From positions 64,001 through 128,000 of IMG/VR virus record IMGVR_UViG_3300048592_000962: a DNA stretch of 64,000 nt. One strand, 5' to 3'. The DNA comes from a virus. Each line of letters opens with the position of its first letter. Within the stretch, counting starts at the first letter, position 1. The notes under the pieces are model-generated. The model saw only the letters and a list, made by a program, of their open reading frames with translations, made no database searches and was not told the origin of the DNA. Both the position numbers and the translations under genes were made by a program. Positions 2-63,999 of the stretch are shown piece by piece.

Positions 2-529
2 GAGTCGCAGCGCACGAACGCGCAGAACGTGACGGGTCCCGTCGCGTCGCTCGCGGGCGTGACGACCGACCGCATCCAGCGCGTCCACAAGCTCTACCAC
101 CAGGCGGAGAACCAGCTCTTCTGGCAGTTCATCGCCGGTGACAAGCCGCAGCTGACGACCTTCACCGCCTACACCCCGGCGGCCGGTGGTCTCGACGGCT
201 TCTTCGCGGACACGCGCCTGCCGCGTGCGAACAACGGCGTTCCGACCAGCGCGGCGCTCATGCGTCTCGCGCGTCCGATCCTCGTCCCGCCGCGTCAGGG
301 CTTCCAGGTCGTGGCGATCGCCTCGCCCATCGGCCAGGCGCAGGGTGCGTCCATCATCGACCAGCTGAACGGCGCGGTCCCGAACAACGACCCGTGGGGC
401 GCCGCCTCGACGGGTGGCACCGTGACGGGCACCGTCGGCACCGACGGTCTCACGACCACGGGCAAGGACGACATCGAGAAGGACATCAAGTACCTGATCG
501 ATGGCATCCACTCGCGCGACGTGCTCTGA
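2..529 (+). CDS. C-terminal part of putative major capsid protein (jelly-roll-like); 5' end lies outside the window
   Basis: Frame is open from the window edge. Extreme GC3 codon bias and a strong terminator immediately downstream suggest a very highly expressed gene. Beta-strand pattern NNGVP..LARPILVPPRQGFQVV..IKYLIDGIHSRDV. The fold is inferred. Confidence 0.55.
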   Translation, partial: ESQRTNAQNVTGPVASLAGVTTDRIQRVHKLYHQAENQLFWQFIAGDKPQLTTFTAYTPAAGGLDGFFADTRLPRANNGVPTSAALMRLARPILVPPRQGFQVVAIASPIGQAQGASIIDQLNGAVPNNDPWGAASTGGTVTGTVGTDGLTTTGKDDIEKDIKYLIDGIHSRDVL

Positions 530-556
530 GAGAGCGCGGTCGTAGCCGCAACGCCT

Positions 557-593
557 AGGCCCGCACTCCGAAAGGGGTGCGGGCTTCTGCTTT
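557..593 (+). terminator. Rho-independent terminator
   Basis: 13-bp stem AGGCCCGCACTCC / GGGGTGCGGGCTT with GAAA loop, followed by CTGCTTT. Confidence 0.85.
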
Positions 594-1863
594 CCGTCGC
601 AGGCTCTTGACGACCTTCCCGAATCGATGTAGCACCAGTCTGGTGCGCGACGCTGCGGCTGCTTGTCTATTGGGAGCGATTTACGGCGACGGAAGCCTCG
701 AAGACCGAACGTCTTCGGTCAAGGTTGCGGTGAGCGCTGACATTAGAAAGCGACCCGCATGGTCCGGTCACATCATCGCCCTGTTTGAGCGCGTTCTCGG
801 AGAGCCGCCTCTTCAATCGCGCCGCACTGCAACTCCTCATTTTGTCGAGCATTACCTTCACTTGCCGGCGGAACGGGTGTGGGACACGTTTGGTGTCACC
901 AGCAAGTATGTGCCGGGTTATCCTCCGCGGCTCGAAGATGGCACCTCGAACCCTGATTCGCGTAAGCGTACGCCGCCGGAATGGGTCGAGATGTATGCAG
1001 GTAGATTCGCGCTTGGTCTTGTCGAGACGGACGGCTGGTTTCTTCCGCGCAGGGACAGGCGTTGCGATTCTTCTCGCTACGAGTTTGGGTTTGCGCAGAA
1101 GGACGAGATGTTAGCGTTGTGGATGTGGACACGTCTGGTTTCGATTGGTGTTCATGCGGGTTTTGGGTGGGGTCGAGGTAGCGGGACGTGGTGGACGCGA
1201 GTGAGTCGACAGGATCAGCTCAGCGTCGTCGCTGACTGGCTCGGCTCGCCATGTGCCAAGTGGGATGAGATATCACAGTTCGTAAACCCCGGCGTGTCTC
1301 CCGAGGCGCCTGACTTTGTAGCGGACCAGTGGCGCCTACTTCGAGCGCGGGAGCTGTTTGAGCGCAACAGAGTGCACGAAGAGCGGCCTGGTGAATACGA
1401 GTCGCCTTCGCGCGCTGGTGTCGGGTCATATATGCGTCGCGCAGATGCTGTTTTGACGTACGGCGAGGCGCGTTCGATTGTTCTTTCCATGCGCCATAGG
1501 CCGCGAACGCGCCTAGAATACTTGCGCGTTGCTTCCGACCATGGATTGCCGACACAGCCGGAGAAGCAGTGGCCGGAGGAGTGGTTGAGATACGGCGGTT
1601 ATCCAGGTTTTCTTGACCCGGAGTTCGTCCGCATCGAACCGCACTGGGTGTCAGCAGAGGCCGCTCGTCGCACTCTCGGCATCGGGCACTCCGTCTGGAA
1701 GAGACTTGTTGCAGACCTAAAGCCTGCCGGATCAGTCGCACACAAGATGTTCTACGACCCTTCCGTTCTCGGTGACCACCTTTTGTCCGTTGCGGACTCT
1801 AGGATGCGCCGAGCGGACGCTGTGCGGCTAGCGTCGCAGATCGGAAGTCTCTGTGCGACGTAA
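577..1863 (+). CDS. LAGLIDADG homing-endonuclease-like protein with C-terminal extension (start uncertain)
   Basis: Two LAGLIDADG-type motifs, LLGAIYGDGS and ALGLVETDGWF, followed by FAQKD; weaker codon bias than flanking genes. Confidence 0.7.
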   Translation: MRASAFRRRLLTTFPNRCSTSLVRDAAAACLLGAIYGDGSLEDRTSSVKVAVSADIRKRPAWSGHIIALFERVLGEPPLQSRRTATPHFVEHYLHLPAERVWDTFGVTSKYVPGYPPRLEDGTSNPDSRKRTPPEWVEMYAGRFALGLVETDGWFLPRRDRRCDSSRYEFGFAQKDEMLALWMWTRLVSIGVHAGFGWGRGSGTWWTRVSRQDQLSVVADWLGSPCAKWDEISQFVNPGVSPEAPDFVADQWRLLRARELFERNRVHEERPGEYESPSRAGVGSYMRRADAVLTYGEARSIVLSMRHRPRTRLEYLRVASDHGLPTQPEKQWPEEWLRYGGYPGFLDPEFVRIEPHWVSAEAARRTLGIGHSVWKRLVADLKPAGSVAHKMFYDPSVLGDHLLSVADSRMRRADAVRLASQIGSLCAT

Positions 1864-3070
1864 GTTGTACATCGACAGCGATGTGCTGTCCGAGGCGCGC
1901 AATCGAGTATCCGCGACGTTCGACGAGTTTGAGAAAGTCTACGTCTCGTTCTCAGGAGGCAAAGACTCAACAGTCATGCTCGACATCGTAGCCACGGAGG
2001 CGAGGCTCCGCGGAAGGCGCTTCGGACTACTGTTTGTCGATCTTGAGGCACAGTACACGGCAACCATTGCTTTCGCAGAGTCACGCTTTGCTGCGTACGC
2101 AGACGTTGCGGACCCATTCTGGGTGGCCCTTCCACTGTCGCTCAGAAATGCCGTGAGCGTGCTGGAACACAAGTGGACGTGCTGGGACCATAGGGCGAAA
2201 GACAGGTGGGTCCGAAATCCACCGCATTTCGCAATCACAGACGAATCGCATTACGACTGGTTTCGACACGGCATGGAGTTCGAGGATTTCATCGTCGAGT
2301 GGGCTAAATGGTACTCAGGTCGGTGCTTTACGGCCTGCCTTGTCGGAATACGCACTGACGAGTCTATCAACAGGTTTCGAACCATCATGTCGGACACCAA
2401 AGGCACTCACGGCGGTAAGCCGTGGTCGACACAAGTGCCCGGCACGAACGTGTACAACGTGTATCCGATATACGATTGGAGTACGGCAGACATCTGGACC
2501 TATCACGCAAAGATGCGAGTTCCGTACAACCCTGTATACGACATGATGCATGCGGCAGGCTTGTCGCCGTCTCAGATGAGGATTTGTCAGCCATATGGAG
2601 ACGATCAGCGCAGGGGCCTGTGGCTGTATCACGTACTTGAGCCGGACACATGGACGCGCGTAGTGGCCAGGGTGGCTGGAGCAAACTTTGGCGCAGAATC
2701 GTCCCGTGCCCGCGGGAACATCAATGGTGTGGGGCGCGTCCAACTTCCAGAGGGCCATACCTGGCAGAGTTACGCGACGATGTTGGTGGAGAGCATGCCG
2801 CCGCACATGGCAGAGCACTACCGAACAAAGATCGGCGTATTTCTGAGGTGGTATGCCGATAAAGGCGGGTACGCCGACGGCATTCCGGATGAGGCTGACA
2901 GGACCGACGAGGCAGAGAAGAGAGCGCCATCTTGGAGAAGGGTCTGCAAGGCCATTCTTAGGAACGACTACTGGTGCAAGTCGTTGGGGTTTTCGCAGCA
3001 CAAGTCGGGCGCCTACGAGTCATACCTGCAACGCATGAGGGATCGGAGAATGCAATGGGCGACATCGTAG
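1853..3070 (+). CDS. PAPS-reductase-family protein, IbrA/YbdN-like (DUF3440)
   Basis: VYVSFSGGKDS PP-loop, LVGIRTDES, YPIYDW, MRICQPYGDDQR, PSWRR.CK.IL.ND.WC..L.F. Confidence 0.9.
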   Translation: MRRKLYIDSDVLSEARNRVSATFDEFEKVYVSFSGGKDSTVMLDIVATEARLRGRRFGLLFVDLEAQYTATIAFAESRFAAYADVADPFWVALPLSLRNAVSVLEHKWTCWDHRAKDRWVRNPPHFAITDESHYDWFRHGMEFEDFIVEWAKWYSGRCFTACLVGIRTDESINRFRTIMSDTKGTHGGKPWSTQVPGTNVYNVYPIYDWSTADIWTYHAKMRVPYNPVYDMMHAAGLSPSQMRICQPYGDDQRRGLWLYHVLEPDTWTRVVARVAGANFGAESSRARGNINGVGRVQLPEGHTWQSYATMLVESMPPHMAEHYRTKIGVFLRWYADKGGYADGIPDEADRTDEAEKRAPSWRRVCKAILRNDYWCKSLGFSQHKSGAYESYLQRMRDRRMQWATS

Positions 3071-3690
3071 CTCGGGCACGCAAGTTGTTTGCTGAACTTG
3101 ACGCGATGGATCTCGATGAGCGCGTGGAGTCGATCAACGCGATTCGTGAGGCGCTTGCGGAGAGGTCGCCATTTGCGAGCCACCCGGTTGACCTTGTCCG
3201 ATGGGTCCGAGCGACCGATGTGGTTGCGAACAGCTACAACCCGAACACCGTGGCGCCACCAGAGATGGAGCTTCTGCGTTTGTCGATCGAGTCCGATGGT
3301 TACACGCAGCCTGTCGTCGCGAACAGAGAGGCGACCGGTTACGAGGTGGTTGACGGGTTTCACCGGTCGAAGGTTGGCAAGGAGTCCGTCTCTGTAAAGC
3401 AGGCGACGCTGGGGTACTTGCCGGTCGTTCAGATCCGTGCGTCGAGGGGAGGCGTACACGATCGGATGGCCGCAACCATTCGGCATAACAGGGCCAGGGG
3501 CAAGCACGGTGTCACGGAGATGTCAGCCATCGTGCTGGACCTGACGAGGCGAGGCTGGTCGTCGGCCAAGGTGGCGAAAGAGCTTGGGATGGATCCGGAC
3601 GAGGTTCTTCGGCTCAAACAGATTACTGGCTTGGCAGAGCTTTTTGCGGACAGGGAGTTCTCGAAGGCATGGATTCCTTCGGATGAGTAG
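3055..3690 (+). CDS. ParB-like N-terminal domain protein, IbrB/YbdM-like
   Basis: HPVD.V.WV, ANSYNPN.VAPPEM.LL..SI..DGYTQP, VVDGFHR, TIRHNRARGKH; ATG 3055 has a GGAG RBS. Confidence 0.9.
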   Translation: MGDIVARARKLFAELDAMDLDERVESINAIREALAERSPFASHPVDLVRWVRATDVVANSYNPNTVAPPEMELLRLSIESDGYTQPVVANREATGYEVVDGFHRSKVGKESVSVKQATLGYLPVVQIRASRGGVHDRMAATIRHNRARGKHGVTEMSAIVLDLTRRGWSSAKVAKELGMDPDEVLRLKQITGLAELFADREFSKAWIPSDE

Positions 3691-3698
3691 CGTGCGCG

Positions 3699-3729
3699 CT
3701 TGACCCTGAGATCGCCTCCGTCGTACGAT
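3699..3729 (+). promoter_or_regulatory. sigma70-like promoter for the 3813 gene
   Basis: TTGACC-N18-TACGAT. Confidence 0.6.
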
Positions 3730-3812
3730 TGGGGTCACCAAATCGTGTGTGGGTGAGCCGGGACTGAAGCGGGCGATGAGTTCGCGGAGGCGAGGCTCCT
3801 CTGGAGGCGAAG

Positions 3813-4736
3813 ATGAACGACGATCCGCAGTTGGCCGCCTACCTTCGTAGGATGGGTGAGCAGCACGAGAGAATGCAGGCGCAGATCGCTGCGCTATCGA
3901 AGCGTACGGGCGCGCTGCTCTCGAAGTCCGAAGAAGACCGGATGGAGATGTCTCGTCTCCAGAAGGCGCTGAAGAAGGCCAGCGATCGCATTCGCTACGT
4001 CGAGGACATCCCCGGCAAGCGCGTGCCGTACTTCATGAACTTCGAGATCAACATTCCGGGACCGACGTCCCCGTCGTTGAATCTCGCCGGTCAGCGGCTC
4101 AGCGACACCAAGCAGGTGTCGATGGATGGCCCGTTCGTGTGCACGTCCTATCAGGCGTCGTTCCTGATGAAGACCTACTCGATCGGTCCGTACGGCGACG
4201 AGGAGTCGGGGCGTCCGAACGATCCTCCGGCGGGCACGGAGGTCACCACGCCGCTCTCCGGTCGCCTGCGACCGGTGGCGAGTACGTCCGATCCGTTCGC
4301 GGGCGCCTACATCGGCCCGCGCGTCGGTCCGGTCAGCATCGCGGGTGCGCAGACGGCGCAGACGTTGCGTCCGGGCGTGATCGACTTCTTGTTCGAGATC
4401 GCGGACGAGGGCGTGGACCGGCTTCGGCAGAACCAGGTCCCGACGCCGTCGAGGTACCTGTACAGCGAGTTCGATCGCCCGTACTACCTGCCCGTCAGCG
4501 ACTTCTTCGAGCGCGGCTCCTCGATCCGATTCGCCGCCACCCTCACGCGCGACCTCGGCTACGTCGAGATCAACTCCACGTTGCTCCCGAACGGGTTCGT
4601 GGAGACGAGCGTGACGCCGCCGCCCGATCCGGCCGCGACGGGTGACGTCGGCCGGCTCGTGTGCGCGGTCGGTGGTACGCTCTACTTCAGCATGGTCGGC
4701 TACAAGATCCTCCAGGCGCAGAGCCCGGCGGTCTGA
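3813..4736 (+). CDS. Putative capsid-related protein: N-terminal coiled coil plus jelly-roll-like beta domain
   Basis: GGAGG RBS; strong codon bias; DGPFVC..DFLFEIADEG..R..PYYLP..FF..GTLYFSMVGYKI beta-rich pattern. Confidence 0.5.
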   Translation: MNDDPQLAAYLRRMGEQHERMQAQIAALSKRTGALLSKSEEDRMEMSRLQKALKKASDRIRYVEDIPGKRVPYFMNFEINIPGPTSPSLNLAGQRLSDTKQVSMDGPFVCTSYQASFLMKTYSIGPYGDEESGRPNDPPAGTEVTTPLSGRLRPVASTSDPFAGAYIGPRVGPVSIAGAQTAQTLRPGVIDFLFEIADEGVDRLRQNQVPTPSRYLYSEFDRPYYLPVSDFFERGSSIRFAATLTRDLGYVEINSTLLPNGFVETSVTPPPDPAATGDVGRLVCAVGGTLYFSMVGYKILQAQSPAV

Positions 4737-4753
4737 CCGGTTGAGGTCCAGTC

Positions 4754-5437
4754 ATGTCGAGCACACCCAGGGGTAACACGAGCGCTCAGCCGGGCGCGCC
4801 GTTGCCGCAGAGTCGTCCGGGAGGCAAGGTCGATCCCGTCAGGATCGTCAACGGCTTCACCGCGACGCTCCCTGGGCGCTCGCGCCTTTTCTTCCAGCGA
4901 CAGTTCTTCGCGGACTGTCCTCGTCCGATCCAGATTTCGGGCCCGCCGGGCTTCCCTCGACAGGTGCCCATCGTCAGCTTTGAGCTGCCGAAACGCCAGT
5001 CACTCGTCATCCGTCGCGTGGACTTCAAGGCGTTCGAGAGCGGCGGCATTGGGCCCAACGACATCTCCGAGGTGCCCTACGGCCGGTCGATCGGAACACT
5101 CGCGTTCCAGTTCGCAGTCGGCAATCGCGGGCTCACCGACAGCCTCACGAACCTTCCCGTGCAGGGCATCCCGGTGCAGTACACGGTCGCGCAGGTCGGC
5201 GGCCCCGTGGCGCCCATCACGCCCTCGGGCAACGTCAAGCAGGGCACGGGCGTCGCGACGCCCGATGCGCGACAGGACATGTTCGCGGGGTACGGCATGC
5301 CCGGCGACCTCGTCACCGCCACCGCCCTCGTCCTGAGGCCACCGGACTTCGACTGCCGATTCTTCCAGGTCTACATCGAAGGCTGGCTCGCGGACGAAAA
5401 GGAGCTTCAGGCGATCATCGACATGATTTCTGGCTGA
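4754..5437 (+). CDS. Putative capsid-related beta-sandwich protein
   Basis: IVSFELPKRQSLVIRRVDF..FQVYIEGWL alternating beta pattern; follows the 3813 gene. Confidence 0.4.
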   Translation: MSSTPRGNTSAQPGAPLPQSRPGGKVDPVRIVNGFTATLPGRSRLFFQRQFFADCPRPIQISGPPGFPRQVPIVSFELPKRQSLVIRRVDFKAFESGGIGPNDISEVPYGRSIGTLAFQFAVGNRGLTDSLTNLPVQGIPVQYTVAQVGGPVAPITPSGNVKQGTGVATPDARQDMFAGYGMPGDLVTATALVLRPPDFDCRFFQVYIEGWLADEKELQAIIDMISG

Positions 5438-5557
5438 CAGCGAACGAACGCGGGGCCGGTGCCCTTGGCCCGACGAACTCGACTAAACGGGAACCTCGGG
5501 CCACTGGCGCCCAGCCCATCAGCAGCAGGGGTACCGTCCTCGCGTTCGTTCGCTGTC
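5436..5557. ncRNA. Highly structured intergenic element (long closing stem with internal hairpins)
   Basis: Perfect 17-bp inverted repeat GACAGCGAACGAACGCG (5436-5452) / CGCGTTCGTTCGCTGTC (5541-5557), continued by CGGTGCCCTTG / CAGGGGTACCG with G-U pairs; internal TGGCCCGA / TCGGGCCA stem. Confidence 0.55.
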
Positions 5558-7076: not shown

Positions 7077-7346
7077 GTGAGCTACCACCGCGCACTTGGG
7101 ATGCCTTCTTTCACGCCGACAACCGCGTTCGCTCAGGCGGTCGATCCGTACTCGGGTAGGTTCAGCCCTCCCGGCGCGATCTACTCGCCGTACGGATGGG
7201 GTCCGGACTTCAACATCGGAATGCCATTCAACTACACGCATCACATCGGATACGAGAGGGTCCCGGCGCCGGCTCGTCGCACGCGGAAGATCGGTCCGAT
7301 GTACGACGTCCTCAGCGGCCTCGGTGGTACTCTTGCGGTACTCTGA
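7077..7346 (+). CDS. Small protein of the MSY/GLG motif group (putative virion protein)
   Basis: Starts MSYHRALG, ends SGLGGTLAVL. Confidence 0.6.
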   Translation: MSYHRALGMPSFTPTTAFAQAVDPYSGRFSPPGAIYSPYGWGPDFNIGMPFNYTHHIGYERVPAPARRTRKIGPMYDVLSGLGGTLAVL

Positions 7347-7361
7347 CGGGCGAGGTGGCTG

Positions 7362-7955
7362 GTGGCATCGCGGCGACGAAAGACGGCAAACGGTTTCGAT
7401 CTCATCGACGACATGATCGACTCGGCGGTGGGAACCGTCTTCGACCGCGTGGGCGAGGTGGTCGAGCGAACCCTGACGCAGCAGCGGGCCAACATGTCGC
7501 CCGAACAGCTGGCTGCCGAATACACGTGTGCCGCGTGCAGAAAGAGCTTCACGGTCAAGCACATCGAGATGATGCACCCGAGCAACGGCTACTGCCTGTG
7601 CAAGGGCTGCTTCAAGTTCCTGTGGAAGGCCGGCGAAGAGAAGGTTCGCGCTCTCGGAAAGAACGCTGCCCATCGAGCTGTTCAGGAGCCGCCTGCGTCT
7701 CCTGGGCCTGGACCGTCTGCCAGCGCGTCTACCGGGCCGGCGTCGGCGGGGGCGCTTCCATGGGTGGTTCTGGGTGTTTCCGAAGACGCGAGCGTCGAGG
7801 ACATCAAGAAGGCCTATCGAAAGCTCGCTGCTGTGTGGCATCCCGATCGCGTGCCTCCTGGGGCTCCGACCGAGGAGAAGCAGCGGGCTACGGAGAAGTT
7901 CCACGAGATCACTCGTGCGCGCGACGTGATGCTGAAGGTGAGGGGCATTGATTGA
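7362..7955 (+). CDS. J-domain (DnaJ-like) protein with N-terminal CxxC..CxxC zinc site
   Basis: PWVVLGV..DIKKAYRKLA..WHPDR..KFHEITRA; CAAC and CKGC. Confidence 0.85.
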   Translation: MASRRRKTANGFDLIDDMIDSAVGTVFDRVGEVVERTLTQQRANMSPEQLAAEYTCAACRKSFTVKHIEMMHPSNGYCLCKGCFKFLWKAGEEKVRALGKNAAHRAVQEPPASPGPGPSASASTGPASAGALPWVVLGVSEDASVEDIKKAYRKLAAVWHPDRVPPGAPTEEKQRATEKFHEITRARDVMLKVRGID

Positions 7956-8326
7956 ATCTCTCCCCATACCGACGAGACATCCCGTTCGGCCAGGTTCCTG
8001 ACTACAAGACCTTCGTCAGGCATTCGTGGCTATTCGTCGACGAGCATGGTCACAGAGCGGTCACGAAGCCTCCGGTGATGTTCCAGATGAGATTCTCCGC
8101 CGAAGAGGCTGTAGTCGTAAGAGACTCTCTTGATTTTCTGCGCGCCTTCATCGAGAGATCTCGCGCTGCATTGTTTGTAGACGGCGCGACGCTGATACTT
8201 CAGGTGTACGACTTGGATGCGCTCCACGCTTTGGCGATGGCGGTATCCGCGAGGCACCCTGTTTCTGAGACGCATCGAAAAGTTGCCGAGAGTTTGATCT
8301 GGGCGCTGGGATTCAGGTGGGTGTGA
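7952..8326 (+). CDS. Hypothetical protein
   Basis: Overlap-coupled between the J-domain gene and the endolysin. Confidence 0.65.
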   Translation: MNLSPYRRDIPFGQVPDYKTFVRHSWLFVDEHGHRAVTKPPVMFQMRFSAEEAVVVRDSLDFLRAFIERSRAALFVDGATLILQVYDLDALHALAMAVSARHPVSETHRKVAESLIWALGFRWV

Positions 8327-9231
8327 TGCGATACGGTGACCGTGGAATCGATGTCGAGAACCTTCAGAAGGTTCTCATCTCTCGCGGCTATGAACTGCCT
8401 CAGTTCGGCGCGGATGGGCATTTGGGCGACGAGACGTGGGATGCGCTTCAGCGCTTCAGCCGCGATTCCGCTCTCGCGTGGGCTCCGGAAGTGCCGTTCG
8501 GGACGCTGGATGTGCTGATCAAGAAGAAGCCGTCGCCTCCGGTTGTGGCGCCGTTGCCGCCGGCAGCGACGGGTGAGCCGAAGGTTCCGTTTCTCGATCT
8601 GCGACACCTTCAGAAAGACCCTCATCCCAAGTCGAAGACGCAGGGGCATCGGACGGTTCGTCGTGCCCCATCGGCTGTGAACGCCATCACGATCCATCAG
8701 ACAGCCGTGAAGTTCTCGGTGACGAAGGCGCAGGTCGCAGCAGCCGGAGGAGACCGTCAGATGGCCCTCGGCCGCCGTGCGCTCAACGTCGCATGCCACG
8801 CCATGTCGTTCCACGACGGGTTCTTCGTCGCGGCGGCGCCGTTGGATTGGTACATCTACCACGGGAATGGGTTCAACCGGTTCGCGTTGGGGCTGGAGAT
8901 CGACGGTGTTTATCCGGGGCTGAAGGGTGGAAAGACCTGGAACGGAGACCCCGCGACCGAGCTGACGGATGCGTCGGTGTTGGCGGCACGAGAGGCCTTG
9001 CGCTGGCTCACGGAGAACGGCAGGAAGGCCGGCATGCCGATCGAATGGATTGACGCTCACCGGCAGTCCTCGGCGACACGTCGTTCCGATCCGGGGGAAG
9101 CTCTGTGGGAATCGGTCGTGCTCGATTACGCGGTGCCCGTGCTCGGACTGAAGACTCGCCCGAGCTACATCGTGGGAGACGGTCGCCCTGTCCCCACCGA
9201 GTGGGATCCGAACGGCGTCGGTCGCTACTGA
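8326..9231 (+). CDS. Endolysin: peptidoglycan-binding domain plus N-acetylmuramoyl-L-alanine amidase (Amidase_2-like)
   Basis: GDRG.DV..LQ..L...GY.L..FGADG.LG.ET binding motif; ITIHQTA, ACH, YHGNG.N..GLEIDG, AHRQ, R.SDPG. Confidence 0.85.
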   Translation: MRYGDRGIDVENLQKVLISRGYELPQFGADGHLGDETWDALQRFSRDSALAWAPEVPFGTLDVLIKKKPSPPVVAPLPPAATGEPKVPFLDLRHLQKDPHPKSKTQGHRTVRRAPSAVNAITIHQTAVKFSVTKAQVAAAGGDRQMALGRRALNVACHAMSFHDGFFVAAAPLDWYIYHGNGFNRFALGLEIDGVYPGLKGGKTWNGDPATELTDASVLAAREALRWLTENGRKAGMPIEWIDAHRQSSATRRSDPGEALWESVVLDYAVPVLGLKTRPSYIVGDGRPVPTEWDPNGVGRY

Positions 9232-23767: not shown

Positions 23768-24649
23768 ATGGACGACCGCCAGTTCGACGCCTACAGCAGC
23801 TCCGTCTCTGCACTCGCCAACCACCCGCACTACCCGGTGGGGCACGTGCTGCTCAAGAATCGTCGCCTGTTTGCCTCGATGGGCATCGAAGACCCCTTGG
23901 GACAGAAGCTCGGCAAGGGCACCTTCGGGCACGCCTTCAAGGTACCGCTACTCGGAGACAGCGTTCTGAAGCTGACCCGCGATCCGACCGAAATGCAGGC
24001 TGCCTTCCTTCTTCGTGGCAAGAAGAGCCGGCGCATCGTGCACGTGTACGACGTGTGGGCGATCCCTGGTACCTTCCACAAGGACCTACGCGGCTGGTAC
24101 CTGATCCACAGGGAATACCTGCACCCTCTGTCGAAGCGCGACAAGAATCTGATCGAGAACCTGTTCGCACTCTTCGACGACGAGAGTCTCGACCTGGTGA
24201 TCCCTCGCTCACAGAAGCAGCACGCCACGCTGGCCAAGTGGCGCGGCTACATCCGGGACATGCTCGGCGGAGAGGGTCCGGTCAGCGGAGAGGGTGAGGA
24301 CGGAGTCCTTCGGTTCGGTGCCACGCACCTGAAGAAGGAAGTGCAGCGCGCGATGATCCTGTTGATTCAGATCGGAGAGGCCGTCGAGGAGATGCGCCGT
24401 GCAGGCATCGACTGGGAAGACATCCACTCGGACAACATGTTGCGCAACGCAAAGGGTGACCTCGTGATTGGGGACATCGGGTTGGGCATGATGCAGGAGG
24501 ACTTCGAGCAACAGGTCCCCTGGCTCACCCACGAGGTGGCTACGGCGTACGTCGCTGCTAACCGCCCTCGCCCTCATCCTCCAGAACATCAGCCGGAGAC
24601 GGCAAGCGATCCTCGGCGCCAAGAGCAAGAAGCGACTCAAACGACCTGA
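23768..24649 (+). CDS. Atypical protein-kinase-like protein
   Basis: LGKGTFG.AF, VLKLT.D..E, EDIHSDNML, IGDIG. Confidence 0.85.
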   Translation: MDDRQFDAYSSSVSALANHPHYPVGHVLLKNRRLFASMGIEDPLGQKLGKGTFGHAFKVPLLGDSVLKLTRDPTEMQAAFLLRGKKSRRIVHVYDVWAIPGTFHKDLRGWYLIHREYLHPLSKRDKNLIENLFALFDDESLDLVIPRSQKQHATLAKWRGYIRDMLGGEGPVSGEGEDGVLRFGATHLKKEVQRAMILLIQIGEAVEEMRRAGIDWEDIHSDNMLRNAKGDLVIGDIGLGMMQEDFEQQVPWLTHEVATAYVAANRPRPHPPEHQPETASDPRRQEQEATQTT

Positions 24650-25475
24650 GAAACGGCATCTCGTCGTTCAGAGCCCTCTCGAAGGTCGTCCGCATCACGT
24701 GTTCCGCCATCGCTTCCGCTGACTCGTGAACGCGCCTCATGAGCTTGTCGTGAAAACTTGACCTTAGCTCATCCGCAACGTAAGTCACCATCGCTGCCTC
24801 GCCGGTCTTCTTCAAGAACCGGTCGAAACCCTTCTTGATAGCCCGGTCCACCGTATCGCTCAGCGGCTGGCCCGGAGCCATCATCGCGGCAAAAATCCCG
24901 TCGATCTTGCTTTTCAGAATGCGCGCGAGTTTCGATTTGTCGTTGAGCTTTCCCCACGTGTCCAAGCCAATCTCGCTGTCGACAACGCCGTCGATGCACT
25001 TGGACACCACCGTGCGGATGCGATCACGAATGGCACCTTCATCGAGCAGTCGGTCCCTGTTGATGTGCCTTCGGATGATCGCACGGCTCATGGCGCGCAG
25101 CCCGTCGACCAGGTCTTCTGAGACTACTTCGCTTGCTGGACGCGACGCTCCTGGACGCGAGGTTCCAATCGACCCGACAACCGCGTCGTCCACGGGTTCG
25201 TGGGTAAATGGGTCTCGACGCTTGCCGTCGACCATCTCCAGTAGGCTGCGAATGTCGCGACGCAGAATCTCGTTCGTCTCGTGGATGCGCTCGTGGTATT
25301 CGCGAACGCGAATGTCTCCGCCGCGAAGCTCCTGCTGAATACGGTAATGGCTTTCGTCGATGGACTTGAGTCTTGGCTCCAGCTGCTCCAGGAAAAGCGT
25401 CCACTGGGCCACGTATTCGCGGAACTCCGTCTCCGTCATGTCGACGGGATGCTTCTTCTTCGCGGGTCTGGTCAC
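24558..25475 (-). CDS. Hypothetical helical protein
   Basis: GTG 25475 overlaps the helicase stop. Confidence 0.65.
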   Translation of the reverse strand: MTRPAKKKHPVDMTETEFREYVAQWTLFLEQLEPRLKSIDESHYRIQQELRGGDIRVREYHERIHETNEILRRDIRSLLEMVDGKRRDPFTHEPVDDAVVGSIGTSRPGASRPASEVVSEDLVDGLRAMSRAIIRRHINRDRLLDEGAIRDRIRTVVSKCIDGVVDSEIGLDTWGKLNDKSKLARILKSKIDGIFAAMMAPGQPLSDTVDRAIKKGFDRFLKKTGEAAMVTYVADELRSSFHDKLMRRVHESAEAMAEHVMRTTFERALNDEMPFLRSFESLLALGAEDRLPSPADVLEDEGEGG

Positions 25476-47369: not shown

Positions 47370-48272
47370 ATGTCGACACCCAGGAAGGCCCCCAAGCCGT
47401 CGCGTGGCAGACCTCGAAAGGAGGCGGTGCCCTATGAGGCGCCCACGGCAGACGAGATGAGGCACGGGGCGTTCCTGCGCTGCGTTCAGTGTGAGAAGGA
47501 GTGGCCGCTACGCCTGGCCGTGCCGAAAGCGAGACGCTGCGCAAACTGCGCTCGGGAATCTTGGCGCTCCAAGAAGACTGACCCGGTAGAGCGCGAGCCG
47601 GCCGACTGGCCGCGCAAGCCCAAGAATGACTACGTGCCGCCAACAGCGGATGATCGCAAGCACGGCAACTTTCTGCACTGTGTCGAGTGTGAACGAGATT
47701 GGCCTCTTCAGTTTACCGTGCCCAGCCTCGATCGCTGCGTAAACTGCGCGCGAGGCTGGTGGCGTGCCCAGAAGACCGAGCGAACCGGTCATCGATGGAG
47801 CAAGTACGGACTAACGCCAACCGACGTTCTTGAAATGCTTTCCGAGCAAAGCAGCAGGTGTGCGATCTGCTCGAAAGCTATTACGGCAGAAAAATGCCAC
47901 GTTGACCACGACCATTCGACCGGAGCAATCCGCGGACTACTCTGCAAGCGGTGTAACTGCTCGATCGGGCACTTCGATGAGGACCCCGTCATCCTTCGCA
48001 TGGCCGCTACGTACATCGAGCGCCACCGCAACAAGCCATCGCCTACACGTCCTCGCGTCATGCGGACGGTGCCCAAAATCCCTTTGCGTCCAAAGAAGCC
48101 TTTCCATTTCGTGACCCGAGATGGCGAACGTATCGACCTAAAGGATCCGACCACGCGCGAGCGGCTGGCCACGGACACCGTGCTGCGACGCGAAATGGAT
48201 GCGTTCTGGGCTCACAAGTTCTCCGACAAATCCAAGAGCGGCCGGTCGCCTAACGGAGACGATGAGTCATGA
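47370..48272 (+). CDS. Endonuclease VII-like (His-Me finger) nuclease with two tandem N-terminal zinc-ribbon repeats
   Basis: KYGLT..Q..RCAIC..HVDHDH.TG.IRGLLC..CN..IG; two copies of PTAD..HG.FL.CV.CE..WPL..C.NCAR..WR. Confidence 0.85.
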   Translation: MSTPRKAPKPSRGRPRKEAVPYEAPTADEMRHGAFLRCVQCEKEWPLRLAVPKARRCANCARESWRSKKTDPVEREPADWPRKPKNDYVPPTADDRKHGNFLHCVECERDWPLQFTVPSLDRCVNCARGWWRAQKTERTGHRWSKYGLTPTDVLEMLSEQSSRCAICSKAITAEKCHVDHDHSTGAIRGLLCKRCNCSIGHFDEDPVILRMAATYIERHRNKPSPTRPRVMRTVPKIPLRPKKPFHFVTRDGERIDLKDPTTRERLATDTVLRREMDAFWAHKFSDKSKSGRSPNGDDES

Positions 48273-59792: not shown

Positions 59793-60229
59793 TGCGCAAG
59801 CCGCCCCCACCGCTCAAGCGCGTTGGCTACTGGAAGTCGACGAAGGACGCTCCGAATCCGATCGCTTCGACCGCCACGGAGCTGACGCTCGCGTACCTCA
59901 GCAAGCTGAGCCCCAAGGCCGCCGAGGCGCTCGCGTCACTCGCGGTCGGCATCACCGAAGCCGACCTTCTCGACCCCCGAGCCCTGGTCGACGCCAACTG
60001 GCATCCGCTGGAGAAACAGCTCGTGCTCGCGCACCTGAAGCGCGGGAAGGTCCATCAGGCGTGGATGGGCTTCTCGAACTGCCGATTCTGCGGATGCGAG
60101 AACGGCACGCGCGACATGTCCGACGGGGTCTACGTGTGGCCCGAAGGATTCGCGCACTATCTGCTCGTGCACCACGTACGACCTCCACAGGAGTTCGTGG
60201 CACACGTGCTTCGGCAGGCGAAGCGTTAG
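59792..60229 (+). CDS. Conserved hypothetical protein
   Basis: VGYW..MGFS.CRFCG..NG..SDG.YVWPEG.AHY...H.VRPP.EF. Confidence 0.7.
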   Translation: MRKPPPPLKRVGYWKSTKDAPNPIASTATELTLAYLSKLSPKAAEALASLAVGITEADLLDPRALVDANWHPLEKQLVLAHLKRGKVHQAWMGFSNCRFCGCENGTRDMSDGVYVWPEGFAHYLLVHHVRPPQEFVAHVLRQAKR

Positions 60230-60255
60230 AACCTCTGGACACGCTTCCAGCCGGG

Positions 60256-61818
60256 TCACCTGCTCCACCGATCGCCGTCGATCATCCCGAGCGCCAGCGG
60301 ATCGAACAAGAACAGCGCGCCGCTGGAGTCGCCAGCTCTCACGTTCTCCACCGTCTCGGGGAACTGCGTAGACGAGTCGAACTCAGCGTTACTAAGCCTG
60401 GTGTTGTCGTTCATCTTCGCGACTCTAAAGTCCGTGCCGAAGAGCAATGTTCCGGTGAAATCCGTGTACTGAATGTCGGCGCCAGCGAACGACATGCCTG
60501 ACAAGTCGAGTCCCGCGAAATTTACGTTGGCCGTCTTGGTGTTGCTTAGATCTATGGACCTAAACTGGTCCGAGTCAGGCTCAAAGCCGTAGTAGTCAGA
60601 AACAAAGTCGAGCCCAGGCTGAAGGTTGAACGCCAGCCACTGCCTCTCCGGAGGCTGACCATGCTTCTTAGCCATCAAGTCGCGCTTCGTCTCTTGCTCG
60701 TGATCTTCGTACTCCGCGATGTAGAACGTCAACTGTATGACAGCGCTTGCGTCGACGATCGGTAGCGATCGAATCGTCTGAAGCGTCATCTGCGCAATCG
60801 CAAGCGTGACATCGTACACTTCCTCGTGCTCCAGCGGAGGGTCGTTCTGCTTTCCTTTCTGAAGCACGTACGAGATGAACTCCTCAGATCCGATGTCCGA
60901 GTTGCCGTGACCGTAGATCTGAATAACGAGCCCCTCTCTCTGCGTATCCAGTTTCAGCTCGCCCGTCGATCTCCTCCTGGTCATGGCGCCGCCGACCTCG
61001 ATCGTCACGTACGGCACGTCGTCGGGGTCGCGAATCGAGTAGATCACTGACTCCTCGTTCGCCACGGCTTCGCAGTAGGTGCCGACGCAGTGCGACATGG
61101 CCTTGCCCTCGTCCTTGAGAGCCTTCGGTGTCGTGAGCCGCTGCGCCGTCCATCCGGACTCGAACCTCAACACCACCTCTCCCCGCTCCACAGCTCCCTT
61201 CGCTACGAAGTCCGCCGATGCCTGCAACACCTCCTCGGCGGACATCTTCATGATGTCAACACCGTTTTTCTTCGCCCACTGAGCGATGAGGCTGAGACGT
61301 CTTGCAAGCTGATCGTACACGTGCTCGCGACGTTCCTCCGCGCGATCAACCGCGCCAACATCTGCCGAGTCGAGATTGAAGATCGCATTGGCCTGACGCG
61401 ACATCTCCCTGGCCACCCAGGGAATAAGCTTGTCTACATCGCTCTTTAGCCGCATCACGCCGCCCGCAAACCCACGGTCATCGGTCATGATGTGCAACAT
61501 GAACTTCAGTGCGACAACCAGCTCCTTCGTCGACTGAGCCTCGCGCAGCTGTGCCGCGGACAGATGCCGCTGCCTTGGTGACAGCAAAGCTGGGAAAAGA
61601 TGGCCGTCACTCGAAAATGACTTGTTCAGGACCACTTTTGCTGTTGACGCCGGAGTGCGCCACAGAAGAGAGCCTTGAAGATCTTTGTTCGGATCGTCGA
61701 TGCCAAGTGCTGGCATGACAATGCCGATCGTATCCCATACGACCCACGGCTGACGTTCCATGTACGTCTTGACTACGAAATCCAGCTTCGATAGCGGCGG
61801 GTTCTTCAGCATGATCAA
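60256..61818 (-). CDS. PcfJ-like domain protein with C-terminal pentapeptide repeats
   Basis: LKDEGKAMSHCVGTY..IYSIRD..PYVTIEV; IDLSN TKTAN VNFAG LDLSG MSFAG ADIQY TDFTG TLLFG TDFRV. Confidence 0.75.
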   Translation of the reverse strand: MIMLKNPPLSKLDFVVKTYMERQPWVVWDTIGIVMPALGIDDPNKDLQGSLLWRTPASTAKVVLNKSFSSDGHLFPALLSPRQRHLSAAQLREAQSTKELVVALKFMLHIMTDDRGFAGGVMRLKSDVDKLIPWVAREMSRQANAIFNLDSADVGAVDRAEERREHVYDQLARRLSLIAQWAKKNGVDIMKMSAEEVLQASADFVAKGAVERGEVVLRFESGWTAQRLTTPKALKDEGKAMSHCVGTYCEAVANEESVIYSIRDPDDVPYVTIEVGGAMTRRRSTGELKLDTQREGLVIQIYGHGNSDIGSEEFISYVLQKGKQNDPPLEHEEVYDVTLAIAQMTLQTIRSLPIVDASAVIQLTFYIAEYEDHEQETKRDLMAKKHGQPPERQWLAFNLQPGLDFVSDYYGFEPDSDQFRSIDLSNTKTANVNFAGLDLSGMSFAGADIQYTDFTGTLLFGTDFRVAKMNDNTRLSNAEFDSSTQFPETVENVRAGDSSGALFLFDPLALGMIDGDRWSR

Positions 61819-62327
61819 AGCTCCAGTGGCTCCACTTCGCTCAGCGGATTCGGGTCAGCCCATTCCGTTTCGACCCACTCACCGTCCTCGTCGTCGTGTT
61901 CCTCGATGTGCAAGGCAAGCTCGATGTCGACACCATCCGATGGGTCAACCCACTCCTCGCCGTTCCACAAGTAGATGCCGCTGCTGTCGATGGGCTCTCT
62001 CGTGAACCAGGCCTGAGCCAATGCGTCTCGCGTTCCCACCGTGTCTTCTTCGATAGGGAGTTCGTCTGGATAGAACTGGACGTCTTCTGTATCGATCGCG
62101 AGCACGACTGGTACGAGCAAATCTTCCAACGGATTGTCAGAGTTATGCTCGGCCAAGTCGACCATGCGCTGGTACCAGTAGCCAATGCCCTCTTCTTCCG
62201 TGAGGAAGATGCGGCCCTTGGAGTGACCGTCGTACCCGCCTCCGTAGTTGCTTCGCCCGCCCGGCTCCAAACCGCGCTTCGCGATCCCAGGGAGGTTGGC
62301 GGCGTACGTGACGTGATACAGGATCAC
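61815..62327 (-). CDS. ADP-ribosyltransferase / Tpt1-fold-like protein with acidic tail
   Basis: LYHVT..NL.GI...GL.P..IFLT..VVLAID..AWFTREPI. Confidence 0.6.
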   Translation of the reverse strand: MILYHVTYAANLPGIAKRGLEPGGRSNYGGGYDGHSKGRIFLTEEEGIGYWYQRMVDLAEHNSDNPLEDLLVPVVLAIDTEDVQFYPDELPIEEDTVGTRDALAQAWFTREPIDSSGIYLWNGEEWVDPSDGVDIELALHIEEHDDEDGEWVETEWADPNPLSEVEPLEL

Positions 62328-62328
62328 T

Positions 62329-62934
62329 TCAGACTCCGTAGTCGAGCCAGACGGCGTTGCCAGACGAGTCGAGGCCGAAGTTGCCTTCGTACGTGTCCAG
62401 GTCCACGTCCGGCTCATCTTCGAGTCGTCGAATGGTCCGCAGGCCGTCGACCAGGTGCTCTGCCCATCGCTGCTGCTCTTCGTCCAGATCGTCCCAGTCT
62501 TCGAGATCGGAGAGCCTTCGCCGACCCTCGTACCCAAACCAAACCTCGACGACCGACACAGCAGCGCGGAGCCGCTTCTTCTGCCTAGACGGCAGCACGA
62601 GGTACTCCTTGCACTTCTCGACCACCATCGCGCACGCCGTGTCGTTATCCTTGAATCTCACGCGAACGAACGATCGCACCTCGGGCCAACCCGCGACCTT
62701 CCCCTTCTTGTACAGCCTCGACGCGTAGCGACAGTCGATTTCGTTGATCGTAAACTTCACGATGTTGTCGCTGCCTGTGACGAAGAACGCGACAGACGAG
62801 TTGCCGTACGCCAGCATGCGCAGCGGTCTCTTGCCCACGAGTCGTCGAAATTCTTCGTCCTTCGAGATGACTTCGGAGAGAATCTTGCGCGCGGCTGAAA
62901 CGTCGTCGGTCGAGAGAGCGGGGTTCGGATTCAT
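62329..62934 (-). CDS. Minimal atypical protein-kinase-like protein
   Basis: LAYGNSSVAF, IVKFT, MVVEK, LDTYEGNFG, VWLDYG. Confidence 0.7.
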   Translation of the reverse strand: MNPNPALSTDDVSAARKILSEVISKDEEFRRLVGKRPLRMLAYGNSSVAFFVTGSDNIVKFTINEIDCRYASRLYKKGKVAGWPEVRSFVRVRFKDNDTACAMVVEKCKEYLVLPSRQKKRLRAAVSVVEVWFGYEGRRRLSDLEDWDDLDEEQQRWAEHLVDGLRTIRRLEDEPDVDLDTYEGNFGLDSSGNAVWLDYGV

Positions 62935-63264: not shown

Positions 63265-63999
63265 TCACAGCGGATCGTGCCAAGAGTTTGTCACCATCGC
63301 ATCTGCCCAGCCGGGCGCGTGCTCTTCGTCTTCTTCGCCGTCGCGATCGATGATGTTCCCGTCGTCACCAACTCGGCGCATATCGACCAGCGACGCTGCC
63401 TCTTCAGCAGTCATCGCTGGCGCAATGCGCTCCCGATTGCGCCGCAACGCTGGCGGAAGCTCGGGCTGCACCATCTCGCCAAGCACAACCTGAAGCGCTT
63501 CTTCCTCCGACAGGTTCGCGCCGTCCACCACAGCAGCTGCCGTGGCCACCTTGTCCGCGAGCAGTAGCGCCATCGCCGCATCCATCGTGCCCTCGCCGTC
63601 GTAGTACGTGATGGTCAGCTCGTTTTTCTGGCCGATTCGATGACAGTTGTGAACCACGGCTTGCCCAACAACAAAGCTTTCGTCTGACGCCACAGTGAGA
63701 TCGTGAACGCGCGGGAACTGTCCGCCGAACTCTTTCTTGTAGGTGGCAGCCGTAGACGTCTTTACGCTGCTTACTGGATGATACACGAATCTGTCATCCC
63801 AAACGCAAAGTGCCGGCGCCGACGATCTTGATCCGTCCGTGTACCCAACAACAATCTGCCCCTCGTTATCGCCTGACACGAACCTGAACGTGGCCGAATC
63901 CTTTGTGGCAAGAATCGCCATGTGAGCCCATGTCGCAAGAGCTGGGGATACAGTAACAACCTCAGACTGCGACTTCCTTCGGTACCCATCGCCGTCGAT
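63265..63999 (-). CDS. C-terminus of SNF2/SF2 helicase interrupted by an intein (5' part outside the window)
   Basis: Helicase motif VI CHRIGQKN directly after intein end VHDLTV..SFVV...VVHN. Confidence 0.85.
   Translation of the reverse strand: MDGDGYRRKSQSEVVTVSPALATWAHMAILATKDSATFRFVSGDNEGQIVVGYTDGSRSSAPALCVWDDRFVYHPVSSVKTSTAATYKKEFGGQFPRVHDLTVASDESFVVGQAVVHNCHRIGQKNELTITYYDGEGTMDAAMALLLADKVATAAAVVDGANLSEEEALQVVLGEMVQPELPPALRRNRERIAPAMTAEEAASLVDMRRVGDDGNIIDRDGEEDEEHAPGWADAMVTNSWHDPL

Follow-up and report, generated by a model that had tools for sequence, protein, structure and literature searches.

Candidate shell genes of a large and possibly tailless bacterial virus that may resemble the archaeal virus SPV1

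The stretch of DNA analysed here (the window) comprises 64,000 nucleotides, namely bases 64,001-128,000 of the 159,872-bp IMG/VR virus record IMGVR_UViG_3300048592_000962, and carries at its left end three conserved open reading frames, ORF1, ORF2 and ORF3. From the genes alone we lean, with a little more than an even chance, towards the view that ORF1-3 are the shell genes of a large tailless virus which would be closer to the archaeal virus SPV1 than to P23-77 or SH1. An earlier note, made from the sequence of the window, had proposed that the three ORFs encode a trio of jelly-roll capsid proteins.

All three ORFs lie on the plus strand where the earlier note had placed them, and they are real genes with strong coding signatures. 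ORF2 (3813..4736) encodes 307 aa and ORF3 (4754..5437) 227 aa. ORF1 is truncated by the window edge, and the window holds only its C-terminal 175 aa (2..529). The full gene of about 260 aa runs from contig position 63648 or, judged by its homologues, 63747, to 64529 (L004:13747-14529); the latter start is the probable one because the homologues of about 260 aa do not extend beyond the C-terminal 89% of the longest reading. The G+C content at third codon positions (GC3) of the trio, 0.84-0.87, is the highest in the region, with 0.87 for ORF2. Homologues of the three ORFs, all labelled hypothetical, are found on contigs of up to 298 kb. For ORF1 there are 250 homologue clusters (identity 73-100%, all about 260 aa), for ORF2 206 (60-95%) and for ORF3 34 (35-98%). 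In an exhaustive profile search the ORF2 family grew to 72 representatives, clustered at 50%, and none of its distant members belongs to an annotated Pfam or PHROG family. One distant ORF2 relative matched phrog_264, 'major head protein' (E 0.0014); this assignment was dropped since no phrog_264 match was found in the genome and two relatives. No sequence link of ORF1-ORF3 to known capsid families was found.

The record has a G+C content of 62%, a terminal overlap of 127 bp and a CheckV completeness of 100%, and is classed by IMG/VR as viral and complete. As 127 bp is a common assembler k-mer length, we read the contig as a circular assembly. By GC3-based choice of the frame 209 genes were called, covering 87% of the contig. 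Related contigs are labelled L007-L009, L011-L013 and L019-L021; the relatives range from 62 to 298 kb, L009 being a 259-kb relative and the 298-kb relative being 90% complete. At 160 kb, with relatives of up to 298 kb, the genome is indeed much larger than those of P23-77 or SH1, as had been suggested from the window.

The trio is adjacent and collinear in nine of the nine relatives with enough sequence, as judged by profile hidden Markov models (HMMs), with ORF1 identities down to 31-34% in L020 and L021. ORF3 directly follows ORF2 in every relative examined, these two included. The genome and the whole 298-kb relative have 52 of the 209 genes in common, and when these are ranked by bits per residue ORF2 is second and ORF1 third. 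This rank, together with the highest GC3, argues against a role as receptor-binding fibres. The terminal strand and the P-rich motif which the earlier note had seen as common features did not stand up to comparison of the families: pairwise hhalign gave probabilities below 1% (E 0.18-0.43), and the best-scoring local alignment of ORF1 with ORF2 does fall on the P-rich motif, but at chance level. Paralogy of ORF1, ORF2 and ORF3 was rejected on the hhalign probabilities.

In the AlphaFold2 model of ORF2 (predicted local distance difference test, pLDDT, 73) a helix of 60 residues (residues 5-64) is followed by a beta-sandwich of about eight strands (residues ~65-305). When the model was compared with 48,161 PDB representatives by VIA-align, SPV1 VP4 ranked first with Z 8.0. 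In a second look at the Foldseek top 1000, SPV1 VP4 (6oj0_A) was again first with Z 8.7, 140 of 178 residues being aligned with ORF2 residues 59-306 at a root mean square deviation of 3.8. The next matches were SH1 (Z 7.1), P23-77 VP17 (7.0), HHIV-2 (6.9) and HCIV-1 (6.7), followed at lower scores by double-jelly-roll capsids (PBCV-1, STIV, poxvirus D13) and several small-virus capsids. All best matches are capsid proteins except one enzyme fold, peptidylglycine monooxygenase (PHM). The weak matches of ORF2 in BFVD are mostly single-jelly-roll capsids as well. Taken together, the matches identify the beta-domain of ORF2 as a jelly roll, with a suggestive bias to capsid proteins; this is an assignment of fold and not of homology, and it makes ORF2 the best candidate for the major capsid protein.

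Within the trio the fold is established for ORF2 alone. The model of ORF1 has a pLDDT of 60 and a core in the form of a beta-sandwich, and its structural matches are weak and generic for the jelly-roll class (Z ≤5.9; P23-77 VP16 5.0, the second SPV1 capsid chain 6oj0_Z 4.9). For ORF3 we used the ESM Atlas model of its homologue P0243 (84% identical; pLDDT 0.49), which gave only generic beta-sandwich matches with TM-scores below 0.5. A complex prediction for ORF1 and the ORF2 beta-domain scored 0.00 and speaks neither for nor against an interaction. Thus, of the proposed jelly-roll capsid trio the part concerning ORF2 holds up, its best matches being to capsid proteins of membrane-containing tailless viruses, but the ORF1 matches are generic and the three proteins are not detectable paralogues. 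We regard ORF1 as a candidate shell protein and ORF3, the third conserved gene of the trio, as a candidate penton or minor shell protein. In L009 a second copy of ORF1 (7304-8800) is situated directly upstream of the canonical ORF1; its residues 1-200 are 88% identical, an insert of about 170 aa matching Pfam Ice_binding occupies the variable loop, and the ORF1 C-terminus follows. Such a loop insert resembles the origin of capsid tower domains and is counted here for a shell role, though it is not capsid-specific.

The same features have to be weighed for an alternative in which the virus is tailless, but ORF1-3 form a vertex, spike or sub-capsomer and the main capsid protein, perhaps with a double jelly roll, is encoded elsewhere, for instance by g062 or g077. 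The long N-terminal helix and the C-terminal jelly roll of ORF2 resemble trimeric spike proteins, the Ice_binding insert of the ORF1 paralogue looks outward, the models of ORF1 and ORF3 are poor, and g062 (775 aa) is conserved and unannotated. However, fast variation would be usual for a spike or receptor protein, and yet conservation puts both ORF1 and ORF2 in the top three, and the trio has stayed intact over a long evolutionary distance; moreover, it is shell proteins and not TNF/C1q-type heads that appear among the top matches of ORF2. We consider this alternative unlikely.

The packaging, head and tail genes of tailed phages were searched for by six-frame Pfam searches of the complete genome and by PHROG scans of about 70 proteins of at least 230 aa. 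Neither Terminase_6N (PF03237) nor TerL_ATPase (PF03354) matched in the genome, and PF03237 did not match in the 62-kb and 298-kb relatives either. Phage_capsid (PF05065) was found neither in the genome nor in the relatives, the 298-kb one included. Phage_portal (PF04860) gave no six-frame match and the scans gave no portal PHROG; other portal families were not tested. Among the proteins scanned no head, packaging or tail family (terminase, capsid, tube, sheath, tape-measure) was detected, the label of g208 aside. This protein (contig 157489-158313, L006 17489-18313, minus strand) received the PHROG labels 'tape measure' and 'minor head', which we dismissed because they trace back to an M23 peptidase domain embedded in g208, a domain also present within some tape-measure proteins; with this domain and its C-terminal membrane anchor g208 may be a membrane-bound wall-degrading enzyme. 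The earlier note had recognised no HK97 capsid, portal, terminase or tail gene in the window, and this extends to the complete 159,872-bp genome: an HK97 capsid, terminase and tail module elsewhere on the contig was not detected by sequence.

The earlier note had also suggested looking for an FtsK/HerA-type packaging ATPase, and this search did not provide a candidate. FtsK_SpoIIIE (PF01580) gave no match in six frames of the complete genome, the DUF87 and A32 models not having been run, and the late block, looked at between g061 and g096, contains no Walker A/P-loop protein. The only P-loop proteins of the genome are the helicases g007, g013 and g116 and one MoxR-type AAA+ protein. Large proteins of unassigned function conserved with the 298-kb relative are g062, the membrane-anchored g066, g007, which lies beside the primase, and the GHKL ATPase g177; a phmmer search of PDB sequences with g007, g062 and g066 brought no useful information. 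Among phage genes, those for terminases are normally the most readily detected. That a terminase, a portal and an HK97 capsid protein are all hidden in the genome is unlikely because too few large conserved unknowns remain.

Several points weigh against our reading of ORF1-3 as shell genes of a tailless virus. PHM, a non-viral jelly roll, reaches Z 7.2-7.4 against ORF2, and the Z of 8.7 for SPV1 VP4 is barely above the level that unrelated models can reach according to VIA-align (Z ~8). Foldseek searches against PDB and BFVD gave no match at E ≤0.001. A jelly roll is predicted for ORF2 alone; the poor ORF1 model matches a phage baseplate protein as well as capsids (IBDV VP2, PRD1 P3, VP16, 6oj0_Z), and ORF3 as well as g062 in the late block and g007 (1121 aa, P-loop) are known from sequence only. 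Failure to detect a terminase, a portal and an HK97 capsid at the sequence level is not proof of their absence, and the lineage is known here from its genes.

In another alternative the genome would belong to a very divergent tailed phage whose HK97 capsid, portal and terminase lie beyond sequence detection and whose ORF1-3 are beta-sandwich proteins of the tail, the baseplate or the head decoration. Jelly rolls and beta-sandwich domains are common in the tail fibres, baseplates and decoration or cement proteins of tailed phages. The top match of ORF1 is a Klebsiella phage baseplate-cup protein (Z 5.9), and ORF2 also matches the tail fibre of phage 7-7-1 (Z 6.3) and a chain of the capsid asymmetric unit of cyanophage Pam1 (Z 5.8). 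The IMG/VR-derived labels on the Atlas protein clusters of the relatives read Uroviricota; tmRNA, tRNAs and MoxR-like, PAPS-reductase and ParB genes are present as in large tailed phages, and large proteins of unassigned function are left, g062 and g007 among them. Against this stands that no terminase, portal, capsid, tube, sheath or tape-measure family was found in the complete genome or in the 90%-complete 298-kb relative. The only long protein near the trio, g080, is unlike a tape measure and was rejected as such on its composition (20% Arg, isoelectric point (pI) 12). Hardly any other gene is as well conserved as ORF1 and ORF2, which would be unusual for tail-tip proteins, and the top matches of ORF2 are shell proteins rather than fibres. 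A divergent tailed phage is in our judgement an unlikely explanation.

The reading of the trio as shell genes also draws on the late block, most of which lies upstream of the window. The 904-aa protein g080 (contig 60057-62771, L004 10057-12771), encoded two genes upstream of ORF1, is protamine-like: it has a pI of 12.0 and contains 20% Arg and 12% Ser, the first ~600 residues holding 17-38 Arg per 100. Its C-terminal ~300 residues are conserved in the relatives, where similar very basic proteins are encoded upstream of the trio. By its composition g080 is a candidate DNA-condensing protein. The 199-aa protein g063 (contig 47467-48066, L003 11467-12066) ranks first in conservation among the genes in common with the 298-kb relative. 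We rejected it as a small packaging ATPase since it has no P-loop; it carries instead a transglutaminase-like Cys/His/Asp protease motif, and it may be a virion maturation protease. The GHKL-type ATPase g177 (HATPase_c_3; 926 aa; contig 135538-138318, L005 9538-12318, minus strand) is conserved in the relatives with 42-45% identity and adjoins the late block in L009 and in the 298-kb relative; a role in DNA compaction would be speculative.

Many small membrane proteins had been noticed by the earlier note. Such proteins are enriched in the late block, where they make up 10 of 34 genes compared with 18 of 175 elsewhere (Fisher p 0.006), but the larger part of the block is situated upstream of the window. 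Several of them end in a membrane helix and a Lys/Arg tail.

The late block also bears on the question of whether the genome is viral at all. It could be a large plasmid or another mobile element, the trio then being secreted or envelope beta-sandwich proteins. The circular assembly with its 127-bp overlap would fit such an element, as would the integrase, transposase, DUF932, ParB and several helicases, and the virion hallmark genes are unproven. On the other hand, the late block encodes an endolysin and two small two-transmembrane (TM) proteins, and a protamine-like protein, tmRNA and tRNAs are present. The ORF2 fold is of a viral type, conjugation genes did not turn up in any scan made of the genome, and IMG/VR classes the record as viral and complete. 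A non-viral element is very improbable.

Among known viruses the top structural match of the ORF2 jelly roll is with the Portogloboviridae (SPV1; VP4, VP10, PDB 6OJ0), at the level of fold only and with a borderline Z of 8.0-8.7. SPV1 has a circular genome, capsid proteins with jelly rolls (VP4 and VP10), an internal membrane and a core of nucleoprotein, and in its ICTV profile a packaging ATPase is not among the nine ORFs given a function (PMC8459092). Both genomes are circular double-stranded DNA, and more than one jelly-roll protein forms the SPV1 shell, for which the counterpart here is putative. SPV1 DNA is condensed by a basic protein; here the protamine-like g080, the enrichment of membrane proteins and the lack of an ATPase candidate in the late block would point to such a core indirectly. 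SPV1 also carries mini-CRISPR arrays, which are of the guide-RNA type. At the sequence level the profiles A1, A2 and A4 matched no capsid chain among the PDB sequences at E up to 1, so that homology to VP4 or VP10 was not detected. The differences are considerable as well. The genome described here is 8-15 times larger (160-298 kb versus 20 kb), its host is bacterial, as indicated by the endolysin and the bins of metagenome-assembled genomes (MAGs), rather than a hyperthermophilic archaeon, and ORF2 has an extra N-terminal helix of 60 residues. Moreover, primase, helicases, tmRNA and lysis genes are found here, whereas in SPV1, a non-lytic virus, genes for replication are not recognisable.

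The Helvetiavirae, that is the Thermus phage P23-77 with VP16/VP17 and the haloarchaeal viruses SH1, HHIV-2 and HCIV-1 with VP7/VP4, combine adjacent genes for two upright single-jelly-roll proteins with an internal membrane. In each of them it is the larger capsid protein that ORF2 matches (Z 6.4-7.1); the ORF1 model of pLDDT 60 weakly matches the smaller one, VP16 (Z 5.0), and the gene order is small then large in both systems. In contrast, the hallmark packaging ATPase of the FtsK/HerA type has no detected counterpart here, the genomes of Helvetiavirae comprise a few tens of kb, ORF1 with 260 aa is larger than VP16 or VP7, and a sequence link is missing. Because the packaging ATPase has no counterpart, the P23-77/SH1 model fits less well than an SPV1-like condensed core. 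We further considered Salisaeta icosahedral phage 1 (SSIP-1, JN880423), a bacterial virus in culture whose circular genome measures ~44 kb. Kinship with it was dropped, since tblastn found nothing at E up to 10 and the profile HMMs of ORF1-3 scored below 8 bits on the 30 SSIP-1 proteins tested. As no sequence link to any of them was found, we do not file the virus in the families of SPV1, the sphaerolipoviruses or SSIP-1.

A core-plus-shell arrangement is also known from adenoviruses, in which a jelly-roll shell encloses DNA condensed by Arg-rich core proteins, and virion proteins are matured by a cysteine protease. The counterparts here would presumably be g080 for the core and g063 for the protease; this is meant as an analogy and no homology is claimed. 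Adenoviruses differ in their double-jelly-roll hexon, their packaging ATPase, the lack of a membrane and their animal hosts.

If ORF1-3 are shell genes, the particle could be built as follows. The major capsid protein, a jelly roll, would be ORF2, with an N-terminal helix that probably reaches towards an internal membrane; ORF1 would be the second shell protein and ORF3 a less conserved shell protein, possibly the penton. The DNA would probably not be pumped by a terminase or an FtsK-type motor. It would rather be condensed by g080, after which a membrane bearing small anchored proteins and the jelly-roll shell would enclose it, as in SPV1; the particle would be tailless and packaging motor-free. 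The cysteine protease g063 and a J-domain protein would aid maturation and assembly.

The J-domain (DnaJ) protein is encoded in the late block at 7362..7955 on the plus strand (Pfam DnaJ, 8.7e-14), and its gene is kept downstream of the trio in L007, L008, L009, L011 and L013. It is followed in the block by the endolysin at 8317..9231 (plus strand), which has Amidase_2 and PG_binding_1 domains by Pfam and PHROG, and then by the two small two-TM proteins. As the endolysin is of a bacterial type, we take the host to be a bacterium with a peptidoglycan wall. Relatives of ORF1 occur in eight MAG bins, four of which are assigned to Planctomycetota/Lentisphaerota, two to Pseudomonadota and one each to 'Deltaproteobacteria' and Acidobacteriota; the binning of viral contigs is unreliable as host evidence. 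A myxobacterial host, as had been thought of earlier, gained no specific support from this distribution, half of the bins being Planctomycetota or Lentisphaerota.

Between ORF1 and ORF2 the window contains a cassette (577..3690, plus strand) that consists of a LAGLIDADG-like ORF (577-1863), a PAPS reductase/DUF3440 gene (1853-3070) and a ParB-like gene (2974-3690), as identified by Pfam and PHROG. Since ORF1 and ORF2 directly adjoin in L007 and L009, the cassette is read as a mobile insertion that does not belong to the capsid module. The slot holds other inserts in L008, L011, L012 and L013, among them a 341-aa gene in L011 and L013 and, in L012, a 297-aa gene together with the same PAPS/ParB pair. 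The gap between these two highly conserved genes is thus a hotspot where insertions recur. Directly 3' of ORF3 a very stable hairpin is predicted in the RNA of the plus strand (5436..5557), with a minimum free energy of -82.7 kcal/mol (z -7.3 versus shuffles) and no U-tract after it; it may mark the end of the operon or stabilise the mRNA.

Elsewhere the genome encodes tmRNA, tRNA-Arg(TCT), tRNA-Arg(CCT) and a tRNA with the four-base anticodon tcta (L002 2334-2684, 12445-12520; L005 15840-15916; L006 12448-12523). AGR triplets account for 15% of all Arg codons of the genome; in g080, rich in Arg as it is, they are only 16 of 184. Genes for a primase, an integrase, several helicases, DUF932, MoxR-like, PAPS-reductase and ParB proteins are also present, and a PHROG transposase match was found at contig 24390-25340.

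To our knowledge, every known bacterial virus of large size (> ~50 kb) is a tailed phage, its DNA being pumped into a head of the HK97 fold. Among the published viruses checked, those of bacteria and archaea that contain a membrane and are built on jelly rolls have genomes of ~10-45 kb (PMC8459092, PMC9894754). Targeted literature searches did not find a published account of a lineage such as the one considered here. That the genome and its relatives represent an undescribed, widespread bacterial lineage of 60-300 kb with a single-jelly-roll shell, a membrane and a protamine-condensed core, without a tail or a packaging motor, and with possible hosts in Planctomycetota and related groups, is a view to which we give slightly less than an even chance. 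If it is true, the SPV1-like design would reach beyond archaeal viruses of 20 kb to genomes of bacterial viruses roughly tenfold that size, and a common environmental lineage of 160-300 kb would break the size limit of jelly-roll viruses. Current virus classifiers would then label such genomes as tailed phages by default. Bacterial viruses would have another way of arriving at large virions, and both archaeal SPV1 and the core-plus-shell design seen in large viruses of eukaryotes would have their counterpart in bacteria.

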